Virus record (IMG/VR): IMGVR_UViG_3300048516_000001
Location: 1 to 64,000 of that record
DNA from: a virus
DNA: 64,000 nt
Direction: 5' to 3' (one strand)
Shown in pieces: positions 1-48,933 of this stretch. A model generated the notes under the pieces. It was not told where the DNA came from. It saw only the letters and a list, made by a program, of their open reading frames with translations, and ran no database searches. The first letter of the stretch is position 1; each line of letters opens with the position of its first letter. Both the position numbers and the translations under genes were made by a program.

Positions 1-136
1 GTTTACGAACTGCTTTAACATCGCCACGCTCACTCGCTTGAAATATCCGCTTTTGCAACTTGAAAGTTACCCGTTCTAGCTTGCGCCAATTTAGGTCTTT
101 CCATTCCACCGTCTGATTGTTCAGCGTTTTAGACAT
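1..136 (-). CDS. Group II intron reverse transcriptase/maturase, N-terminal 45 aa (partial)
   Basis: My translation of the minus strand from ATG at 136: MSKTLNNQTVEWKDLNWRKLERVTFKLQKRIFQASERGDVKAVRK. This matches the conserved W..I.W.K.E..V..LQ.RI..A...GD.K.VR motif of intron-encoded proteins. Too short to appear in the ORF track. Confidence 0.75.
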   Translation of the reverse strand, partial: MSKTLNNQTVEWKDLNWRKLERVTFKLQKRIFQASERGDVKAVRK

Positions 137-738
137 TTTCATTGCTACTTGTTGTATTCCTTTGGAATTACCGTGCATCTGTCGGCATATCCTCACCATT
201 ACAGCGAGGCATTCGCTTTTGATACAATCCCGTCCCTTTAAATCTTTCGTTAGCTACTTACTGGATTTCGACCTCTCCAGAGATTTAAAAGGGTTACTTC
301 GTTCCGATTACACACCTTTGAGTCTTTAGCGCGATGCTATCCACCGGGTTTATAGGTAATGCTTATAGGTCAAACTGTAAATTGCCTATACCTTATCCTT
401 GCCTTTTGGCTTGGTGTTAATCAGTCTTTACCGCGTTTTTCAGAGGTTTTATTCTGATTTTAGCCATTACACCATACATTATTACGATGGTTCAGACACA
501 TCTTTGATTTCTCTACGCATGGACTCCTGCTCGACAGTTACCGGGTTCGGCTCCTAGTAGTCTGCCTTTTAACCCCGCTTTAGCTTGATGGTTGCTACCC
601 ATCGAACTAGGGGCTATGCTTTCACCGCTGCATCTGCGGGGTAGGTTTTGCACCTACTTGTATAATCAGTTGTCTGGCTAATGGAACCAGCTAACCGTCC
701 CTGAGTATTTCTACTCATTTGGGTCAAACGAATCGCAC
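1..738 (-). mobile_element. Group II intron, 5' part (ribozyme domains upstream of the intron ORF plus ORF start); continues past the left edge
   Basis: Minus strand reads GTGCG at 738-734 (canonical intron 5' end). About 600 nt without an ORF follow, then an ORF starts at 136 with a typical intron-encoded RT N-terminus. Domains V/VI lie outside the window. Confidence 0.65.
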
Positions 739-4514: not shown

Positions 4515-6319
4515 CCTGTCAACTCCTTGTATTCTGCAAGTGCTGATTCATAAGCTTTCGTCTTACCTGGTCGTGCATTCCATAATATCCAGATAATTTC
4601 GGTTTGGTTGTGTTTCGTTTCATGTTTCAGTTTTTGAATTAGCTCAATTGCTTGATTTCTGCCGAGTTTCAAGGGCGTGAAATAAGCAATACCAGAATCG
4701 GTGAAACTATTGTCAGATGGTTGTTTCACGCCTTGAGCGGTATCTGAAACCATTTCACCTTCGCCCAACTTCGGCTTAAAACCGAAAATCCGTTCCAGCC
4801 TCTCAACCTCACTCTCTTTGTCTGTCTTGATTTCAGTTTGCGACTCAATCGATTCTATTTCTTTAGGTTGTTCTAATTCAATTACAGCAGTATTTTGATG
4901 CTGCTGTTGATAGTACCTGACATCAGCTTGAAGGCAAACACTCGCTGGTTCCAATGTCGAGAAAATAATAGGACGTTCGCTGTGTTGTGAGATTGGTCTA
5001 AGCTTCTCAAACTCGGCAATTAATCTAACTCGAATATCTCTGTCGCTGATGATGTGCTGACTTTGAATCATGTAGGACAAAACACCATAAGAATCATTCA
5101 CTCCTTCATCGGTTGTATAGTAATTTCCCAGCCCAATTAGGTTGAAGTTTTGACGCGAGTTGTTGTCAGCTTTCATGCCAATTGCTTTTAGATTGAAACT
5201 TTGTAAATCTGCCCACAAGCAAACATTGAAGTCACGCCCGTTGAGAACAATATCTACTAATTCAACCAAGTAGTTAGAGTCTTTAACGTCGGGATGAGCG
5301 GTTAACTTCTCTAACGCTAAGCTGATGCTGAACCAGTCAGCCAGTAGTAGACGAACAGGTGATAGATTCTTCCTCTTTTCCTCGTCTAAGTGTCTGCGCT
5401 TGTCATAGATACTCCATACATGGTGAATAGTATCGAGTGTTTTTTTGACTTGGTTGATGTCAAAGATTGTGACTCGTCCCTTCTCTTTCAACCCACAGAA
5501 ACTATCATTTTTCTGACTAACTACCCAGAACTCTGCGGACGACTGTTTCTCTTTGAGTATTGAAATCAAAGCCGCTTGAGTAACGCTTTTACCGCCACCT
5601 GTACCTGCAATCAATAGCAGGGATTTCCTTGATAACGCTAGCTGATTAAGAATAGCTTTCGCTTTAGTTTCGGACGGATGTAACAAACCCGGTTCAAGCA
5701 CTGGTTGGCTAGCAATTTCAGTCACCCCAAACGTGTCAACGATACCGTCAGTCAAGATACTTTTTTTTTCAGCCTCGTTTTCGCTTGCTGACGGCAAGGA
5801 AGCTTGTTGATTGACTGATTGAGTGTTAACGGCGGGTAATTGCTGTTGCTGGCGTGTTTCCGGCTCACTAGCGTACCAATTGCTAGCTTCTGCAAGTTCA
5901 ATAAACGCGCTTTCAAGGTCTTTCTGGTGTGCTGTAACAGTTGTTGTTTTGTTCGCCTCGCACAACTCCCGCTCTGTTTGAAGTTCAATGTCAGTGCGGA
6001 TTTTACGAACCCGTTTTGCTTTCTGGTATTCCTCCCCCTCTAACTCGATTTCCGATAGTCGATTGGAGACTATCAGGAATGCCATCACCGACAGAGGAAC
6101 CGAACCCATTAACAACAGAATGGCTAGAATTGTGTAGTTTGACGCAACTTTGATGGCGGGCTTCTTGAGCACTTTGTATTCGTGCTCTGTGACGATTTGC
6201 TCGGTACTGGTTAATTGATAGCGGGTTTGTTTGGGAACCATTGCACCGAGTATCATCAGCGCGTAAGCAGCCGTCACACAGCCAGAAAACATTGCTACTG
6301 CTTTGAGGTTCTTTTTCAT
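4511..6319 (-). CDS. Membrane-anchored P-loop NTPase (FtsK/TcpA/coupling-protein-like)
   Basis: N-terminal hydrophobic helices, a coiled-coil, Walker A LLLIAGTGGGKSVT, and a hydrophobic strand ending in D (VRLLLADW). Overlaps both neighbours. Confidence 0.55.
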   Translation of the reverse strand: MKKNLKAVAMFSGCVTAAYALMILGAMVPKQTRYQLTSTEQIVTEHEYKVLKKPAIKVASNYTILAILLLMGSVPLSVMAFLIVSNRLSEIELEGEEYQKAKRVRKIRTDIELQTERELCEANKTTTVTAHQKDLESAFIELAEASNWYASEPETRQQQQLPAVNTQSVNQQASLPSASENEAEKKSILTDGIVDTFGVTEIASQPVLEPGLLHPSETKAKAILNQLALSRKSLLLIAGTGGGKSVTQAALISILKEKQSSAEFWVVSQKNDSFCGLKEKGRVTIFDINQVKKTLDTIHHVWSIYDKRRHLDEEKRKNLSPVRLLLADWFSISLALEKLTAHPDVKDSNYLVELVDIVLNGRDFNVCLWADLQSFNLKAIGMKADNNSRQNFNLIGLGNYYTTDEGVNDSYGVLSYMIQSQHIISDRDIRVRLIAEFEKLRPISQHSERPIIFSTLEPASVCLQADVRYYQQQHQNTAVIELEQPKEIESIESQTEIKTDKESEVERLERIFGFKPKLGEGEMVSDTAQGVKQPSDNSFTDSGIAYFTPLKLGRNQAIELIQKLKHETKHNQTEIIWILWNARPGKTKAYESALAEYKELTG

Positions 6320-17847: not shown

Positions 17848-17851
17848 ATAC

Positions 17852-17978
17852 TTGACGTATTCTAATCAACCTGCTATTATTAAATCAATCGATACGTTTA
17901 CGGCAATTGCGTGCAGTGAGTAGCGGTTTTAGTGTGTTTTCATTTGAAGTGGTTTTCATCCCAAGCCTGCGAAAGCGG
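17852..17978 (+). ncRNA. Candidate small RNA unit (promoter plus about 90 nt plus terminator), function unknown
   Basis: TTGACG 17852-57, 17 nt, TATTAT 17875-80. Hairpin CCTGC-GAAA-GCGGG (17956-17969) followed by T7. No ORF lies in between. Confidence 0.3.
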
Positions 17979-18000
17979 GTTTTTTTATTAGAAAATTGAG

Positions 18001-18029
18001 TTGACAGGATTCGCATCTTCGATTACAAT
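18001..18029 (+). promoter_or_regulatory. CRISPR leader promoter
   Basis: TTGACA 18001-06, 17 nt, TACAAT 18024-29. Lies about 130 nt upstream of repeat 1. Confidence 0.6.
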
Positions 18030-18156
18030 AGACTTAACCGAACCACGAAAACTAAATAATATTCAATCTTTCCATAACACTTTTGCAATTGCGGGAGTCG
18101 GCTTGACGCAACTCAATCTTGACAACTAGATACACCAACGATTTCACACGTCTGCG

Positions 18157-18552
18157 GTCGCAATCAACCTAAACCCCTATCAGGGATTGAAACCAGTACA
18201 GTGCCGCTTTATCCTTGCCTTGTGTGAGTCGCAATCAACCTAAACCCCTATCAGGGATTGAAACGTGGCTTCTTCGCAGACGACGCTAATAGCTTGCCGT
18301 CGCAATCAACCTAAACCCCTATCAGGGATTGAAACTGGAGCAAATTAAATAATGCTAATTAACAAAACTCGTCGCAATCAACCTAAACCCCTATCAGGGA
18401 TTGAAACGTGTCTAGTGGATCCGGTTGTAGGTGAATGAGTTTGGGTCGCAATCAACCTAAACCCCTATCAGGGATTGAAACTCAGACTAGCAATCATGTG
18501 CTGCACAAACATCAACGTCGCAATCAACCTAAACCCTACTAGGGATTGAAAC
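18157..18552 (+). CRISPR. CRISPR array, 6 repeats and 5 spacers, no adjacent cas genes
   Basis: 37-nt repeat GTCGCAATCAACCTAAACCCCTATCAGGGATTGAAAC starts at 18157, 18228, 18299, 18371, 18445 and 18517. The last copy is degenerate (36 nt). Spacers are 34, 34, 35, 37 and 35 nt, all different. Confidence 0.95.
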
Positions 18553-19059
18553 GTCCCCTTTGATGACTTGACCTAACCCGCCCGCCTGTTGCAAACCAGG
18601 CTTAGAAATCAACGTTTCAGTGAAGTCAACCGACAAAGGGCAACTGTAACCAGTAACCGACCCATGTTCTGAGTTCTGCCAGCCCCAAGATTCTTTCTTC
18701 TCTGCTGGCTGCGGAACCTTTACCCGCTTCAACTCTCGGATATACCAATGAGACTTATCATCGTAAATAACACTGTAGGGCGCTTGGATTGTTGACTTAC
18801 TTTTGTCTTTTGACACGATTGCACCTTCCTCATCCACAAGGTGACTCCAATACTTCCAAGGTAATCGACAGCATGGAGCGTACCCGCCACTCTCTTTACC
18901 ATCTAAACCGTTTGTAGCTTTGTAGTAGTAATAATTTGTTTCAAAATCTTCTAAGGCTGATAATCCACAATTCCACACAGACTTAGAAATTTGTAACCAC
19001 TTTTCTATTTTTTCTTTCTGTTCGAGAGACGGAAAACATTTAAATTCTAGTGTGAGCAT
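18529..19059 (-). pseudogene. Truncated tnpB-like (IS891/IS1341 OrfB-type) N-terminal fragment
   Basis: Starts MLTLEFKCFPSLEQKEKIEKWLQISKSVWNCGL, the TnpB/Cas12 N-terminal pattern. It has only 176 aa and no RuvC motifs. Its 3' end runs into the last CRISPR repeat. Confidence 0.5.
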
Positions 19060-19326
19060 AATTGAAAATCTTTTGCGAAGGGCTTTGCAAACTCAGTATA
19101 TCATGTTATCTTAGTAATATAAAGGTAGGGAGCTTTCACCCCATTACCTGTGAGCTTTGACTCATAAAAGCGAGTGTAGCGAAAGCAGCTTGAAGCTAGT
19201 CGTAAGACAGCAATCCTGAAAAATCGAAAGATGCGGGGAAACCCAAACAGGATAATTATCTGGTAGGGCAAAAGAGTGGGAACAATCTCGCTCTTTTGTT
19301 TTGGATTGAAATTGAAATTGAATATC

Positions 19327-19355
19327 TTGACAAGATTAATAGCGTTAGCTATAAT
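19327..19355 (+). promoter_or_regulatory. Consensus sigma70-type promoter
   Basis: TTGACA 19327-32, 17 nt, TATAAT 19350-55. Lies 27 nt before ATG 19382. Confidence 0.65.
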
Positions 19356-19381
19356 AGTAATATTTACCACTTCTCAATGTC

Positions 19382-19963
19382 ATGCAATTACTCCCTAATA
19401 GCGACTCACCGCAATCCGAAAGCATTGAGATTAACCAGCAGTTGCAACTATCTAGTAGCGACTCACCGCAACCTGAAGATATCGAAGAAATTAACTGGCA
19501 GTTGCAGTTAGCCAGCAAGGTACAAATTAAGCGGTGTAGCAAATGTGGAGTTTTCTCCAATCCGTATCAAAGTATCCCGCCAAAACAACTTGACGCTTGG
19601 TGCGATGACTGCTTTGTCAATACTCCAGCAATAGAACGCACTCGCAAAACCTCAGTCGGTGAACATTGGAAGTTGATACAGAAACAAGAAAGGGAAGCTC
19701 AAAAAAGAGCGGAATTGGTAGCACAGTTACAGGCACAAAAGAAATTGCTAGCCGAAAAACGTGCTAAGGATAAGAATGCACCTAAAAAGTCAAAAAAGAA
19801 GACTGTAGAAGACGCTTATTCGTTAGCCCTAGACTTTGGGGAGTTGAGCGTTGATGTAGAGGAGGACAAAGCACGGGACGCGATACTGGCACACGATGCA
19901 CGACGGGCGTACATTGCACGAGTGCAAGATAGGACAATTTTTGATGAAGACTATTGTCAGTAA
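19382..19963 (+). CDS. Hypothetical protein with tandem N-terminal repeat, Cys4 motif and basic coiled-coil
   Basis: 193-aa ORF with CSKC...CDDC. A 57/60-nt tandem duplication spans 19399-19510. The last codons and the stop lie inside the IscB element end. Confidence 0.6.
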   Translation: MQLLPNSDSPQSESIEINQQLQLSSSDSPQPEDIEEINWQLQLASKVQIKRCSKCGVFSNPYQSIPPKQLDAWCDDCFVNTPAIERTRKTSVGEHWKLIQKQEREAQKRAELVAQLQAQKKLLAEKRAKDKNAPKKSKKKTVEDAYSLALDFGELSVDVEEDKARDAILAHDARRAYIARVQDRTIFDEDYCQ

Positions 19964-20195
19964 CTCAGGTCTAAAGACACTGAGCTTGTAAGACGAAAGT
20001 TGAAGCAAGCTATCCTGACCAGCCTAAGTCTTAACTGACTACGTTTTTTGAGTCACGACACCCCGGAATGCGAAGCTAGTTCCTTGCCCTGTCGTCTGCA
20101 ATTAAACAGTTTTAAAGTCACTGAAACAGTGTTGCAGGTCTAAAAAGCTCTTAAAACATTGGCGAAGCTAACATAACCTAAGCAATTAGAGAAGG
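19954..20195 (+). ncRNA. Predicted IscB omega-RNA scaffold (guide expected just upstream, about 19935-19953)
   Basis: About 245 nt of non-coding sequence directly 5' of iscB, beginning with the hairpin CTCAGGTCTAAAGACACTGAG. IscB omega-RNAs are known to sit in this position. The fold was not verified. Confidence 0.5.
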
Positions 20196-20200
20196 CAGAA

Positions 20201-21472
20201 ATGTCAAATTACACATTAGTCATTGATTCAAATAAGCAGCCGTTAAGTCCATGTCATCCCTCGGTAGCAAGGAAATTACTAACGTCGGGTCAAGCTGCGG
20301 TATTCCGTATGTATCCATTCACCATCATTCTCAAAAAAGAGGTAATCGCCACGCCAGAACCCATTGAACTCAAAATAGACCCCGGTTCTAAAACAACTGG
20401 GATAGCCTTAGTTCAAGGGAACAAAGTTATCTTTGGTGCTGAACTAACTCATCGTGGTCAAGCTATTAAAGCAAGCCTTGAGTCTCGCAGGATTTTACGC
20501 CGGAATAGAAGAAATCGCCATACTCGCTACCGTCCCGCTAGATTCTTAAACCGGACTAAATCAAAGGGTTGGTTGGCTCCATCACTAACACATCGGGTAT
20601 TAACTACACTGACTTGGGTAAACAAGTTTATTCGGTTAGCTCCAATCAGTTCGATTTCTCAGGAGCTTGTGAGATTTGACTTACAGCAAATGGAGAATCC
20701 TGAAATATCAGGCATTGAGTACCAGCAAGGCACTCTTTCTGGCTACGAAGTACGTGAGTATCTACTTGAGAAATGGGATAGGAAATGTGCTTACTGTGAG
20801 ACAGAAAATATTTCCTTGCAGATAGAACATATTCATCCTAAATCAAAAGGTGGCTCGAATCGTATCTCCAATCTATGCCTAGCCTGTGAACATTGCAACA
20901 TCAAGAAAGGTACTCAAGATATCAAGGTTTTCTTAGCTAAGAAACCTGATGTTTTGAAAAAGGTACTTGCCCAAGCAAAGCGTCCACTAAAAGATGCAGC
21001 AGCGGTTAACTCTACTCGTTGGGCATTGTTCAACGCTCTTAAAACTACTGGATTAACTGTTACCACTGGTTCAGGAGGTAGAACCAAATTCAATCGAGCG
21101 AGCCTCAATCTTCCTAAGACTCATTGGCTAGACGCGGCTTGTGTCGGCGAAGTAGAAACATTAAAAGTCCTAACCAAAAAACCTTTGCTCATCAAGGCAA
21201 CTGGTCATGGTTCTAGGCAGATGTGTAGAACTGACAAGTTTGGATTCCCATCGCGCTATGTCCCTCGGTTCAAGTTTGTCCAAGGTTTCCAGACTGGCGA
21301 CATCGTGAAAGCGATTGTAACCAGTGGGAAGAAAATCGGAACCTATGTCGGGCGAGTTGCTGTTCGTTCTACTGGCAGTTTCAATATTTCTGCGTCAACA
21401 TTAGTTCAAGGTATTAGCCACAAGTATTGTTCAGCAATTCATAAAAAGGATGGTTATGCTTACTCAAATTAA
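20201..21472 (+). CDS. iscB: IscB RNA-guided nuclease (RuvC+HNH)
   Basis: PLMP-like N-terminus (KQPLSPCHPSVARKLL...YPFTIIL). RuvC-I IDPGSKTTGIA. Arg-rich bridge RRILRRNRRNRHTRYRPARFLNR. HNH CAYC..LQIEHIHPKSKGGSNRISNLCLACEHCNIKKG. RuvC-III KTHWLDAACVG. Confidence 0.9.
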   Translation: MSNYTLVIDSNKQPLSPCHPSVARKLLTSGQAAVFRMYPFTIILKKEVIATPEPIELKIDPGSKTTGIALVQGNKVIFGAELTHRGQAIKASLESRRILRRNRRNRHTRYRPARFLNRTKSKGWLAPSLTHRVLTTLTWVNKFIRLAPISSISQELVRFDLQQMENPEISGIEYQQGTLSGYEVREYLLEKWDRKCAYCETENISLQIEHIHPKSKGGSNRISNLCLACEHCNIKKGTQDIKVFLAKKPDVLKKVLAQAKRPLKDAAAVNSTRWALFNALKTTGLTVTTGSGGRTKFNRASLNLPKTHWLDAACVGEVETLKVLTKKPLLIKATGHGSRQMCRTDKFGFPSRYVPRFKFVQGFQTGDIVKAIVTSGKKIGTYVGRVAVRSTGSFNISASTLVQGISHKYCSAIHKKDGYAYSN

Positions 21473-21475
21473 GTC

Positions 21476-21558
21476 AGATTCAAGGCGATTGAAACCGCCG
21501 GGTCGTTTCCCTCTCAGCACTAAAGTGACTGAGTTTCCCACTTACCGAGTTGTTTATA
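21476..21558. repeat. 83-bp perfect inverted repeat, left copy (inverted LE)
   Basis: Exact reverse complement of 42106-42188, checked base by base. Confidence 0.95.
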
Positions 21559-21647
21559 TGAGGCAAAGACTTGAATAATTGTAATTTTAGCCGTCTTGAA
21601 AGACGGGGCTTTTACCCAGTTTTCTGGTAAATAGCTCTAAACGTACT

Positions 21648-22019
21648 TTGTCCATAAGTATTATGTCAGAAAACAAATTAATTCTACCTTCCGAAGTTGG
21701 TGAAGTGTCAGACGGGTTTCACACTTTTAATGAATTGTACGACCATCGCTGCACCTTGTTTCTCGCATTGTTAACGTTGGTTAATAATGCTTGGTATTCT
21801 AAAAAGCATAGTGACGGGTCTGAGTGGAGCGGCTGGTTTATTGCTGGCGTTGAGATAGAAGAAGGTAAGCAAATTACATATCATCTGCCTAATAAGTACC
21901 TGAGAATTGCTGAAGACAGGTTGGACTATAAGGAGTGTGCGCCGGAATGGGATGGACATACCTCAGCCGATGTTCTGATACGCTTGACAGAAGTGCGAGA
22001 CGCAAGCCCCTGGCTTTAG
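21648..22019 (+). CDS. Conserved phage-type hypothetical protein (EWDGH motif)
   Basis: 123-aa ORF with DGFHTFNELYDHR...WYSKKHSDGSEW...ITYHLP...EWDGHTS. Its last codons lie in the LE of the downstream IS. Confidence 0.55.
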   Translation: MSISIMSENKLILPSEVGEVSDGFHTFNELYDHRCTLFLALLTLVNNAWYSKKHSDGSEWSGWFIAGVEIEEGKQITYHLPNKYLRIAEDRLDYKECAPEWDGHTSADVLIRLTEVRDASPWL

Positions 22020-22113
22020 ACACGGGGAAAAGTCGGCAGCGGTTTCAACCGCATTGAATATTTCTTTACATTTCAATACGCAATATACAGATTCGTTCGT
22101 GTATACTGCGGGT

Positions 22114-22512
22114 ATGAAAGTAAAACTCAAATCCAATGCCAATGTAATATACTCTTGTAACTACCATATTGTTTGGTGTCCTAAGTATCGTAGGTCTGTG
22201 TTGATTAACGGTGTAGATATTCGCCTGAAATCGATTCTACAAGAAGTCTGTGCTGAATTCAATGCTGAGTTACTAGAAATGGAAGTCATGTCAGATCACG
22301 TCCACATTCTGGTAGGAGTAGACCCACAATTCGGAATTGCAAAATTAATTAGATACCTGAAAGGGCGTTCATCTCGACTGTTGAGGCAAGAATTTCCTTG
22401 GTTGAAAAGCCGACTACCAACTCTTTGGACAAATAGTTATTTCGTTGCAACGGTTGGTGGTGCACCGTTATCCGTCGTTAAGCAGTATATCGAGAATCAA
22501 AAAAATGTCTAA
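22114..22512 (+). CDS. tnpA: IS200/IS605 Y1 (HUH) transposase TnpA
   Basis: YHIVWCPKYRR, HUH motif SDHVHILV, and catalytic Tyr region SYFVATVGGAP. Start taken at MKVKLKS. Confidence 0.9.
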   Translation: MKVKLKSNANVIYSCNYHIVWCPKYRRSVLINGVDIRLKSILQEVCAEFNAELLEMEVMSDHVHILVGVDPQFGIAKLIRYLKGRSSRLLRQEFPWLKSRLPTLWTNSYFVATVGGAPLSVVKQYIENQKNV

Positions 22513-23772
22513 TTACGGATGCCAGCAAAACTTAATTAGTCCCGATTCTAGTCTGAAGGCGATTTTAGAGTTTGTATGTGGTGAATCAAATAAGTTGGCG
22601 AATTGTGCGCTGTACTATGGTCGTCAGTTGTATTTCAAGACTGGTAAGATTCCTGGAAAATACGATTTCCATAAAATGTTCAAATCAAATTTGCATTTTA
22701 AAGCTCTGTATTCTCATGTCGCGCAGCAAACTTTAACCAGCGTCGCCGAATCTTTTAGTTCGTACATTGGGCTACTAAAAGGAATTAAATCTGGGACTGT
22801 CACACAGCATCCAAGATTGCCGGGATACAGAAAAGATTCTCTGAAATTAGTAACATTCCCCAAAGCTGATGTCAAATTCAAAAACGGACTACTACGCTTT
22901 CCGTTGGGTAGCAAGGTCAAGCTTTGGTTTGGAGTTGGGGAATTCTTTTTGCCGATGCCATCAAATTTGGATTACAAGAAATTGATTGAAATTCGGATTC
23001 TCCCCAAAAATCGCTGTTTTTATGCCGAATTTGTGTATCGAACAGAGGAATTGGCTGTAGATGTTAGTCCAGGTCGTGTACTGGGATTAGACCACGGAAT
23101 TAATAACTGGTTGACAGGAGTATCCAATGTGGGAACTTCTTTCATTATTGATGGGCTACACCTAAAGTCCTTGAATCAATGGTACAACAAGCGAATCTCT
23201 GTCTTGAAAAAGAATCAACCCCAAGGTTTCTGGTCAAATCAATTAGCCAGGATTACCGAGAAAAGGAATAGACAAATTAGAGATGCAGTAAACAAAGCAG
23301 CGAGAATTGTAATTAACCACTGCCTTAAAAATCAAATAGAGACCGTAGTTTTCGGGTGGAATAAAGATCAGAAACAACGTGCAAATATGGGTAAAAAGAC
23401 TAATCAAAAATTCGTACAAATTCCCACGGGTAGACTGAAAGACAGGATATCTCAGTTATGCCAACAGCATGGAATTAAGTTTGTAGAAACCGAAGAAGCA
23501 TATACCTCAAAAGCCAGTTTTCTCGATAATGATTCACTACCTAAGTTCGGTGAAAAACCTGAAGGGTGGAAAGAATCAGGAAAAGAGTAACTCGCGGACT
23601 GTATCGTTCAGCAGATGGTACAAAAATCAATGCCGATTGCAACGGCGCAGCCAATATTATCAAAAAAGTAGCGGTAAAACTGGGATTGAATCTTAGTGGA
23701 ATCAGTAGCGGCGACTTGATAGCGCCTTTGAAAATCCGACTCTGGACTCTTCAAGAATCCCCTCGCCTTTAG
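22505..23772 (+). pseudogene. tnpB: tnpB (IS1341-type, no zinc finger) with a 1-nt frame disruption near 23582-23585
   Basis: Two overlapping ORFs (to 23590 and from 23566) together align with the intact TnpB at 42371-43693. The break falls at GGAAAAGAG, versus GGAAAACGAG in the intact copy. The RuvC-III motif NADCNGAANI lies after the break. Confidence 0.8.
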
Positions 23773-23830
23773 GCATGGGGAGTATCAAAGACTGGATTGA
23801 CAACGGTTCTTATATTTTGCCAAAGTATTG

Positions 23831-23968
23831 ATGACAGCAACATCTCAGTCCTACGAACTCCGCCCGTATCAAGATAATCTAATCGCTGAGGTTAGATTAT
23901 CTTGGGCTGCTTATCGTCGTCTTCTATTGCAATTGCCTACAGGTGGCGGCAATGCCAGATATTGCTAA
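23831..23968 (+). pseudogene. N-terminal remnant of a DEAD/SF2 helicase gene
   Basis: My translation: MTATSQSYELRPYQDNLIAEVRLSWAAYRRLLLQLPTGGGNARYC*. It has the LRPYQ and LPTGGG(K) helicase motifs I/Ia and stops inside the Walker A motif. Confidence 0.5.
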
Positions 23969-25930: not shown

Positions 25931-25999
25931 CTAATAGCAATCGGGGCTTAATTAGCCCCGCTCAATTCTAACCACTTCAAATTACCACACACTAAAACC

Positions 26000-42105: not shown

Positions 42106-42188
42106 TATAAACAACTCGGTAAGTGGGAAACTCAGTCACTTTAGTGCTGAGAGGGAAACGACCCGGCGGTTTCAATCGCCTTGAATCT
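42106..42188. repeat. 83-bp perfect inverted repeat, right copy (LE of the tnpB element)
   Basis: Exact reverse complement of 21476-21558. Confidence 0.95.
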
Positions 42189-42246
42189 TATCAAAACTTA
42201 ACATGACTACAACGCCAAACTCCAGTAACTATGATACGATAGTTGC

Positions 42247-42384
42247 ATGAGTAAAAAAGCGTTGCAGATACAGATAGACAAAATCGAAAGAGAGAAGTTA
42301 GAAGCCCTTTCTTCTAACTGGGGGCTGAGTTTGGCGGGTGTAATCAGAAGGCTGATTAGGGAGTTTGAATATGGCAAAAACTAG
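42247..42384 (+). CDS. Small RHH/CopG-like protein inside the IS (45 aa)
   Basis: My translation: MSKKALQIQIDKIEREKLEALSSNWGLSLAGVIRRLIREFEYGKN. It has an RHH-like strand plus helices. Below the ORF-track cutoff. Confidence 0.4.
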   Translation: MSKKALQIQIDKIEREKLEALSSNWGLSLAGVIRRLIREFEYGKN

Positions 42385-43693
42385 AAAAAGTATGGGCGTT
42401 CAGCAAGTGCTATTACACCCAGACATAGAGACCAAATCAATACTCAATTACTTGTGTGAACAGTCAGGGAAGCACTATAACAACGGTGTCTACTTTGCGC
42501 GTCAAACGTTTTTTAAGACTGGAAAATTGTTAACCGGAAAGTTTGACTTGGTTTATGAGCCGACTGTTTCTAAGACTATTGTAGCTAAGTCACTACCTTC
42601 TGTGCCTGCCCAGCAAACTCTTTTGTCTGTGACTGAAGCATTCAAATCTTTTAAGGGCTTACGTGAGCTTTATTTCAATGGTCAGTTGCATTTCAAGCCT
42701 AAAGCACCTAATTATCTCAAAGGTACAAAACTGTTCAAGGTTGCTTATCCTAATTCAGGTGGACAAAAACCAATTTTGAATAATGGACAGTTGAGATTCT
42801 CTTTGGGGTTGACAGTTAGACGCTGGTTTGGAGTATCAGAATTGTTTCTGCCGATGTCGTCAAACATTGATATCGGCAATGTGAAAGAGTTTACAATCCT
42901 ACCTAAAAATGGTGCATTCTATCTTGAGTTGTCCTATGAGATTGCAAGTCAAAAGCATGAGTTAGATATTAATCAAGCGCTATCCATTGACTTAGGGACT
43001 GCTGACAACCTAGCTGCTTGTGTCGATACTCTGGGAAATTCTATGCTAATTGATGCCAGAGCAATGAAGGCGATGAATCAGCTTTGGAATAAAAAAGTAT
43101 CGACTCGCAAGGATGGGAAAGAACACGCTTACTGGGATGACTGGCTAGACCGTGTGACCCGTAAGCGCAACCATCAAATGAGAGATGGCACTAACAAAGC
43201 TGCAAAGTTGATTGTTGACCATTGTCTTAAGTTTGGTATTGGGACATTGGTAATCGGTTGGAATGAAGGCTTCAAAACTAATGCTAACATGGGCAAAGTA
43301 AACAATCAAAAGTTTGTACAGATGCCTTTGGGGAAGCTCAAAGAGCGGTTGAAGCAACTCTGCGAATTACATGGCATTAGATTTGAAGAAACCGAAGAAG
43401 CCTATACCTCTAAAGCTAGTTTCTTAGATGGAGATTCCCTACCCAAGTACGGCGAAAAGCCTGAAGGGTGGAAAGCATCAGGAAAACGAGTTAAGAGGGG
43501 CTTGTATCGTTCAGGAAACGGCTCAGTGGTGAATGCAGACTTAAATGGCGCTGCAAACATCCTTAGAAAAGTAGCCAGCAAGTTAGGCATAGACCTAAAC
43601 CAACTGGGAAGGCGGTGTTTGACGACCGTAGCGAGAATAAGACTTTGGGTTTTACCTAGAGTTGTTCTGTCCGCAGAATCTCAGTCTCTTTAG
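42371..43693 (+). CDS. tnpB: TnpB RNA-guided nuclease (intact, zinc-finger-less variant)
   Basis: RuvC-I LSIDLGTADN, RuvC-II VIGWNEGFK, RuvC-III NADLNGAANILRK. Homologous throughout to 22505-23772. The start could also be 42365 or 42392. Confidence 0.9.
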   Translation: MAKTRKSMGVQQVLLHPDIETKSILNYLCEQSGKHYNNGVYFARQTFFKTGKLLTGKFDLVYEPTVSKTIVAKSLPSVPAQQTLLSVTEAFKSFKGLRELYFNGQLHFKPKAPNYLKGTKLFKVAYPNSGGQKPILNNGQLRFSLGLTVRRWFGVSELFLPMSSNIDIGNVKEFTILPKNGAFYLELSYEIASQKHELDINQALSIDLGTADNLAACVDTLGNSMLIDARAMKAMNQLWNKKVSTRKDGKEHAYWDDWLDRVTRKRNHQMRDGTNKAAKLIVDHCLKFGIGTLVIGWNEGFKTNANMGKVNNQKFVQMPLGKLKERLKQLCELHGIRFEETEEAYTSKASFLDGDSLPKYGEKPEGWKASGKRVKRGLYRSGNGSVVNADLNGAANILRKVASKLGIDLNQLGRRCLTTVARIRLWVLPRVVLSAESQSL

Positions 43694-43708
43694 AGCTGAG
43701 AGTGTCAA
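43560..43708 (+). ncRNA. Predicted TnpB omega-RNA (reRNA) scaffold; guide would start at 43709
   Basis: TnpB guide RNAs are known to derive from the 3' end of tnpB plus the RE. The RE hairpin contains the tnpB stop codon in its CTTTAG loop. The 5' limit is a guess. Confidence 0.4.
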
Positions 43709-43779
43709 TGCAGTTGCTACAGCTATAAAAAGTAGAAAAGTAAGCGCAATGGCAGCGTCGCAAGACAGTTGTTTTGAGC

Positions 43780-43865
43780 GTCTAGAGGCACATTGACAAT
43801 GCCTTTGAAGATTGCAGCAGTAATCTATTCAAGAATCTCGGTGTCTTTAGACCTGAGAGTGTCAA
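43780..43865 (+). mobile_element. Solo right-end (3' tnpB/omega-RNA) remnant of a third element
   Basis: TTGACAATGCCTTTGAAGATT...CAAGAATCTCGGTGTCTTTAGACCTGAGAGTGTCAA parallels the last ~85 nt of both tnpB elements. No tnpB ORF precedes it. Confidence 0.6.
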
Positions 43866-48624: not shown

Positions 48625-48933
48625 ATACTTTGATATCCTTTGTGATTTGACTGCCTTATTATGGTATCAGTTAAAGACGGTTATTGCAATGAAATCGCGC
48701 AATAAGTAACATCAAATAAAAAAGCTTTTATTGACCGTCTTTTTTCCTTTCTTCAAGTGAGTCGTATTCTTAATATGTCTATTGTATTAATGGTTTTTAC
48801 TGTTAGAATAGTTATATAATACAACGATACAAATATCGCATATATCCAAATTCTCCGCAAGTTCATAGTCTTGCTAAATTGTTTGGATGCTGTCGTGTCG
48901 TAACAACAAGACCCGCCAATAAGAGCGTAACCG

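Follow-up and report, generated by a model that had tools for sequence, protein, structure and literature searches.

A type V-U2 CRISPR module on a cyanophage is already known from Aphanizomenon phage vB_AphaS-CL131 (PMC6293099), in a paper that also describes the cas-less array of cyanophage N1 and the ICP1-type phage CRISPR system. Cas12p, the 'Cas12 hacker', recognizes a GTN protospacer-adjacent motif (PAM; bioRxiv 10.1101/2025.01.20.633832). In insertion sequences (IS) of the IS200/IS605 type, the donor joint is targeted by a guide derived from the flank of the element, and a single TnpA is able to act for several of them (Meers et al., bioRxiv 10.1101/2023.03.14.532601). The locus described here, positions 17,848 to 23,830 of the first 64,000 nucleotides of IMG/VR record IMGVR_UViG_3300048516_000001 (the window), holds the remnant of a V-U2 module, two IS200/IS605-type insertions and a putative antisense small RNA.

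The original prediction had taken this stretch for a hotspot of guide-RNA loci on a replicon of about 64 kb with no cas genes. The elements it listed, namely a candidate small RNA, a CRISPR array, a tnpB-like fragment, an IscB element and a tnpA-tnpB IS, are present in that order and do not form one selected unit. Very probably three unrelated things stand side by side, a decayed V-U2 module, two recent IS insertions and an independent antisense RNA, as the outcome of tolerated accumulation and decay rather than of selection for a guide-RNA hub. The region is a dispensable, variable early-gene stretch of a Microcoleus-type cyanophage.

The replicon is in fact an 83.8-kb circle (the virus contig measures 83,911 nt and has direct terminal repeats), of which the window is the first 64 kb. 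It encodes the terminase, major head, scaffolding and head morphogenesis proteins of a tailed phage and a DUF3854 replicase. Two spacers of Microcoleus arrays match the phage genome (2 and 5 mismatches; PAMs GTT and GTA), so the host is probably of the Microcoleus type. Beyond the window the circle carries a further tnpB gene at 70.9 kb (genome positions 70869-72074) and a reverse-transcriptase-like open reading frame (ORF; 82236-83864) that runs on into window positions 1-738.

A truncated c2c8 gene beside the CRISPR array

An ORF with a TnpB-like N-terminus lies next to the array as predicted, but only the C2c8 model NF038192 matches it (68.7 bits). Longer homologs of the fragment measure 611-662 aa, and the best of them, the intact 611-aa P0001 (97% identity), scores 394.7 bits against the same model (cut-off 350). 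The sole match of the fragment in the phage collection was ORF061 of CL131. In relatives, intact c2c8 occupies the same place, convergent on the array. On its sequence, the fragment is a truncated cas gene, c2c8, and the module a type V-U2 remnant lacking a full-length effector. Since the gene is intact in relatives, the statement that the replicon has no cas genes was mistaken.

The window gene keeps 169 of 611 codons. Relative to lineage L008, about 1.37 kb has been deleted, with 442 codons and all RuvC motifs; the RuvC residues D310, E452 and D554 are invariant in eight relatives. As the nuclease is deleted, the module is dead as a Cas12 system in this genome. The junction coincides exactly with the end of the last repeat on its 3' side and shows no microhomology. 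In the intact gene, GTT stands before this site, a triplet found at 2.5% of the gene's positions (GTN at 6.5%). The truncation might be an assembly artefact at the repeat, given that the junction abuts a repeat and that its pattern was not found among metagenome contigs, in a scan that excluded the record itself. Nevertheless, the c2c8 side holds no repeat-like sequence or microhomology by which an assembly could collapse, the complete circular contig lacks the remainder of the gene and has no fourth TnpB-like gene, and c2c8 was lost independently in L007, making an artefact very unlikely.

Among the relatives, L001/L010 and L008/L158 have intact c2c8, L007 lacks both c2c8 and the predicted trans-activating CRISPR RNA (tracrRNA) described below, and L009 lacks the whole module. 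The second loss, in L007, has a different junction, with an IS605 remnant standing in place of gene and tracrRNA; the L007 array is retained and has 18 nearly uniform repeats. An AlphaFold model of C2c8 (eight sequences) was weak (pLDDT 57) and was used for ranking only. Elsewhere, on a 92.7-kb contig (L149, 6001-7971), a 656-aa C2c8-like gene, P0007, has a tracrRNA-like unit upstream and no array within 330 nt downstream. Acb2/Tad1-like and NblA genes are also found at that locus.

A predicted tracrRNA

Divergent from c2c8 lies a predicted tracrRNA that had been overlooked in the original prediction. The unit, of about 180 nt, is conserved upstream of C2c8 homologs with 73-97% identity, and its fold shows two-sided changes in 13 of 52 predicted pairs, several of them within the terminator. 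The anti-repeat pairs with the repeat as a 15-bp duplex and covaries with four repeat variants, the cognate repeat giving the best or tied-best duplex at 5/5 loci. A conserved UUUC (19134-19137) could pair with GAAA of the repeat in a possible pseudoknot. The distant homolog P0007 was excluded from the alignment. Because the related sequences are few (five), the identification is a strong prediction rather than proof. A literature search, with most subscription papers outside its reach, turned up no description of a V-U2 tracrRNA or of V-U2 biochemistry.

Directly after the tracrRNA terminator, L008 (3728-7787) and L158 carry an inserted cassette of QueC, FolE, QueD, radical-SAM, ParB-like and 338-aa genes, which probably serves 7-deazaguanine DNA modification.

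The array and its targets

The predicted array is present, with six repeats and five spacers. Its repeat is identical at 34-35 of 37 positions to common Microcoleus/Nostoc host array repeats; the exact repeat was not found in the genome collection. Arrays of this repeat family have cas10d on the same contigs. The leader end resembles Microcoleus/Nostoc leaders by eye only, with no BLAST match. No cas1 or cas2 is annotated in the 7-10 kb flanking the array and c2c8 loci, a genome-wide Cas1 search not having been made.

As read from their matches, the spacers aim at small rival elements and at an hsdM restriction gene, mostly with a GTN PAM. Matches of spacer 3 include the ATPase gene of a 16.6-kb circular element. 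Spacer 5 matches hsdM at 34/34 positions in two Microcoleaceae genomes and at 33/34 in a third, and also has targets on two cyanobacterial plasmids; the PAM is GTT at four of these five loci and ATT at one. In one targeted restriction locus (L187, 4414-5960) a nucleotidyltransferase and Cap15 pair lies between hsdS and hsdR, and another targeted hsdM locus is near an integrase.

Of the 52 spacers of the phage group, 13 have a match in Microcoleaceae or plasmid loci with no more than 7 mismatches in 32, whereas none of 156 controls does. This share is biased because the target loci were gathered around one gene after the first matches. The best-match PAMs of the 13 are GTT (6), GTA (2), GTC (1) and others (4), that is, GTN in 9/13. 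No spacer of the group has a target in this genome or in the collected sister loci, so conflict between sister phages is unsupported. In the L010 array (4678-5820) the repeats differ strongly from one another and in several places follow each other with no spacer between them, and its spacer 2 is nearly identical to a spacer in a Microcoleus host array (L117).

The targeted 16-18-kb elements encode an integrase, a primase-helicase and a three-gene ATPase/membrane cluster, and have genes in common with the phage. A head-scaffolding homolog was found in 2 of about 20 targeted-element loci; matches to the capsid, portal or terminase of this phage were not. The elements may be satellites or other small rivals. 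Three circular Microcoleaceae elements of 16-17 kb (L186, L234 and L236) carry an integrase or phage-like replicase with the ATPase/membrane cluster, and two of them a scaffolding homolog; the L236 replicase is 59% identical to that of this phage over 1062 aa. They are possibly an undescribed satellite family. The suggestion of inter-element conflict applies to the CRISPR module and not to the other loci; the module predates the IS insertions, and its spacers match rival elements.

Proposed function and loss of the module

In the intact relatives, an older minimal V-U2 module of array, c2c8 and tracrRNA is most likely functional. New spacers would be added to the phage array by host type I-D Cas4-Cas1-Cas2, which we infer because no adaptation genes are annotated beside the phage loci, the repeat is host-like and the PAM is GTN. 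GTN is also the PAM of cyanobacterial type I-D systems. The tracrRNA would pair with the repeat, as the covariation indicates, and C2c8 would cut GTN-flanked DNA of the rival 16-18-kb elements and of defence islands, in which targets are found. In this genome, deletion of the c2c8 nuclease has ended the Cas12 function.

As an addition to this scheme, the orphan array may still be active, with its transcript cut by host Cas6 and taken up by the type I-D Cascade of the host, which would read the same GTN PAM and make the phage nuclease dispensable. The near-identity of the repeat to host repeats, the intact promoter and leader, a PAM common to host spacers, and the loss of c2c8 twice by different junctions with the array kept, its repeats nearly uniform in L007, are all consistent with such activity. 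However, the same repeat accompanies intact c2c8 in L008, the hsdM spacer would still be harmful to an hsdM-carrying host, and the order of spacer gain and c2c8 loss is not readable from the data. Continued activity is possible, if tentative.

The hsdM spacer is present in both c2c8-null arrays (the window and L007) and in neither c2c8-intact array. Together with the PAM-flanked junction, this pattern suggests, on two lineages against two and a single junction, that c2c8 was lost because of harmful spacers. A spacer against the host hsdM island or c2c8 itself would make the nuclease lethal to the stably carried phage or to the host, and the deletion would have been made by the adaptation machinery (self-spacer and recombination, or half-site integration). 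The position of the junction at the repeat end, GTT-preceded and without microhomology, and the plasmid type of the phage DUF3854 replicase agree with this. On the other side, the spacer may be a single shared ancestral one, the trailer end is not the normal place for new spacers, and hsdM loci are partly plasmid-borne and occur in only 3 of 144 genomes. We regard this explanation as rather unlikely. Quite unlikely is the full combination, in which host type I-D adaptation machinery destroyed the phage Cas12 by joining the repeat to a GTT-flanked cas site, the loss was favoured by the hsdM spacer, and the surviving array is read by host Cascade. If true, it would show how phage V-U2 systems can turn directly into orphan phage arrays.

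The IS insertions

The IscB element was predicted correctly, with an intact iscB (NF040563, 469.8 bits; RuvC and HNH motifs intact) and an omega-RNA (HEARO, 149.5 bits). The upstream omega-RNA, IS200/605 ends and target-adjacent motif (TAM) are all present, as expected of the IscB (OMEGA) class, and the guide is the upstream flank. Of 61 Microcoleaceae genomes, 37 have related elements. The predicted tnpA-tnpB IS is also there, with a Y1 transposase (PF01797), hairpin ends and insertion 3' of a fixed motif without duplication, but its tnpB is broken by a frameshift near 23585, with a stop at 23588 and the last RuvC motif in another frame. L008 and L158 contain a clean empty site, TTGAC followed by the right flank. 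The second tnpB element and solo right end at 42.1-43.9 kb were confirmed.

Neither IscB nor IS605 occurs at this site in four relative lineages (L001/L010, L008/L158, L007 and L009). Both are recent, host-derived IS200/IS605 insertions, younger than the CRISPR module. In the original prediction, empty sites in relatives were to indicate ordinary IS accumulation, and such sites are what the comparison found. For the IS guides, the original prediction had advised a search for targets in the host and in competing elements; among the collected loci they match empty sister-phage alleles only, and no target of the guide following the first right end (43709) is convincing. As read from the flanks, the guide targets are by construction the empty allele only, as the donor-joint mechanism predicts. 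Homing or retention applies as a built-in property of any IS200/605 element and not beyond that. Next to the IscB target the sister alleles carry ATGG, not ATGA, and cutting there is therefore uncertain.

Four related genomes hold 14 IS200/605-type events between 9.6 and 74 kb (window coordinates), 3 of them within the 5.9-kb stretch, in a catalogue that is incomplete because two relatives are 17-kb fragments. The clustering has P = 0.07 with this stretch as a fixed window and 0.98 when any window is allowed. The insertion density is within chance, and the claim of an unusual density of guide-RNA loci is not upheld. The notion of a preferred landing zone holds weakly, for a dispensable variable region that in relatives takes up other cargo unrelated to RNA guides (the Que cassette, 19311-19320); the IS remnants of relatives are scattered over 9.6-74 kb.

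The original prediction had also suggested, as one option, selection for RNA-guided functions such as homing, retention or conflict, which would have the phage gather RNA-guided systems in one place with guides cross-loaded between them. The elements are indeed adjacent, IscB is intact and its guide matches an intact sister-phage allele exactly, and the IscB and 42-kb tnpB elements have an 83-nt end in common. Against this, the IS are unique to this genome, the nucleases are broken in two cases out of three, the RNA scaffolds are unrelated, the density is no more than chance would give, and the sister alleles have the altered motif. The empty sites in four relative lineages largely refute such a hub, which is highly improbable; selection for stacking RNA-guided functions finds no support.

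Further observations concern the element ends and flanks. The IscB element (21476-21558) and the 42-kb tnpB element (42106-42188) have 83 identical end bases and different motifs (TCAT vs TTTAT), and native DNA at the 42-kb site already has about 9 nt in common with the element end. The IscB element (19955/21558) replaces about 0.9 kb of phage DNA seen in L008, and the 42-kb element (42108/43866) replaces 0.8 kb relative to G146 and 3.8 kb relative to G145. As phage DNA is replaced and both ends lie at TAM-like motifs, transposase-mediated adjacent deletion is suggested for both. The relative G146 (L166, 1299-1735) carries an omega-RNA element on its own, in which both IS ends are present and iscB is missing. 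A hairpin like another IS end lies at 21589-21630 and also in L008. Just past the IS605 right end is a remnant of the start of a helicase-like gene (23829-23960). What is left of the beginning of another tnpB lies at 48734-48900 and is related to an element that L008 carries as an insertion at about 26.1 kb.

The small RNA

A promoter- and terminator-bounded unit is present at 17.85 kb, as predicted for a candidate small RNA. A guide-related role did not stand: the RNA has no Rfam match and no similarity to the CRISPR repeat or IS ends, and it is kept in L009, where about 30 nt stand in place of the 1.3-kb CRISPR module. A role as tracrRNA was rejected on the same persistence. Within bases 17925-17954, two blocks can pair with the 30 nt preceding the start codon of ORF 26000. 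The computed duplex with this 5' untranslated region (UTR) has -37.8 kcal/mol, compared with -25.0 for the next-best UTR and -25.6 +/- 1.8 for the best of 60 shuffles. The pairing blocks are conserved and the linker between them is variable. By this computed pairing, the RNA is a putative independent antisense regulator of translation of one phage gene. In L008, ORF 26000 is interrupted, and the L009 fragment was not found to contain it, which makes its regulation less convincing as the only role of the RNA.

Table 1. Features of the locus and related features elsewhere in the window (window coordinates)
Feature	Position	Strand	Details
Putative antisense small RNA	17852..17988	+	sigma-70-type promoter 17852-17880; RNA ~100 nt; terminator 17963-17988
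CRISPR promoter and leader	18001..18156	+	promoter 18001-18029, 11/12 consensus; conserved in L001
CRISPR array	18157..18552	+	six 37-nt repeats (last degenerate), five spacers
Spacer 3	18336..18370	+	start of ATPase gene, 16-18-kb Microcoleaceae elements; 4 mismatches/35; best match PAM GTT
Spacer 5	18482..18516	+	hsdM of type I restriction-modification locus, 34/34
N-terminal 169 codons of c2c8 (type V-U2 effector)	18553..19059	-	ORF 19059-18529, TnpB-like N-terminus
Predicted tracrRNA	19124..19302	+	divergent from c2c8; anti-repeat 19252-19268; 3' terminator hairpin
Phage gene	19382..19963	+	last codons supplied by IscB element end
Non-autonomous IscB element	19956..21557	+	omega-RNA 19956-20177; iscB 20201-21472; TAM ATGA 3' at 21558-21561
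WDGH-domain accessory gene	21648..22019	+	IS605 left end in place of 3' end
IS605 element	21989..23788	+	inserted after TTGAC; tnpA 22114-22512; tnpB from 22505
5' UTR of ORF 26000, predicted small-RNA target	25970..25999	+	ORF of 249 aa, weak OB-fold match
Second tnpB element, then tail and right end of another element	42107..43865	+	tnpB 42371-43693; right ends 43708 and 43865

Discussion

Several points weigh against the reading of unrelated, tolerated elements around a decayed V-U2 module. Mild enrichment would still be compatible with the fixed-window P of 0.07, the IS catalogue has gaps, and L007 has a third IS remnant at 19.3 kb. No other assembly showed the deletion junction. For spacers 1, 2 and 4, no target was found in 144 Microcoleaceae genomes at up to 3 mismatches and none in the phage and plasmid collections (spacer 2 also has no match in viral contigs), spacer 2 of L010 has a good match with the PAM CCA in its targets, and the share of matched spacers carries the sampling bias given above.

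The hotspot itself is ordinary, and the value of the locus lies in its V-U2 module. For a direct test, the lineage offers an intact effector in relatives, a predicted tracrRNA whose anti-repeat covaries with the repeat, natural targets and a GTN PAM. The module occurs in four states (absent, intact, truncated and array only), which bears on the origin of cas-less phage arrays.

ICP1 versus PLE is an example of a phage CRISPR system directed against a satellite. Here too the array is aimed at small rival elements, with satellite status inferred from a scaffolding gene in two elements only, whereas ICP1 uses a complete type I-F system. Cyanophage N1 resembles the present phage in having an array without its own effector. 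The IS elements follow the IS200/IS605 pattern of Meers et al., with a flank-derived guide and a TCAT-type motif for IscB and TTTAT or TTGAC for TnpB. No difference of principle was found, although the IscB and 42-kb elements replace 0.8-3.8 kb instead of inserting cleanly.

Like C2c8, Cas12p is phage-borne and has 500-700 aa. It uses a GTN PAM and a tracrRNA with a pseudoknot to the repeat 3' end, to which the GTN in 9/13 best matches, the predicted tracrRNA and the possible UUUC-GAAA pairing may correspond here. It is also the top sequence and fold match of C2c8 in the PDB (9jfs, 9jg3), by a fold model that is weak (pLDDT 57). However, only residues 382-538 align well, with 15-16% identity in the fold alignment, and C2c8 stands outside the tight Cas12p (type V-P) family, most members of which exceed 70% identity.

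Also close is the system of CL131, likewise a cyanophage with a C2c8-family effector beside an array and no adaptation genes. It differs in that the effector is truncated here, the repeat is of the host type I-D kind, unlike that of CL131, and a tracrRNA is predicted, none having been found in the CL131 paper (PMC6293099). The targets and the GTN PAM are readable here. The subtype itself is thus known; what is new is that one lineage holds the module in four states, together with its hsdM and satellite-like targets and the deletion junction.

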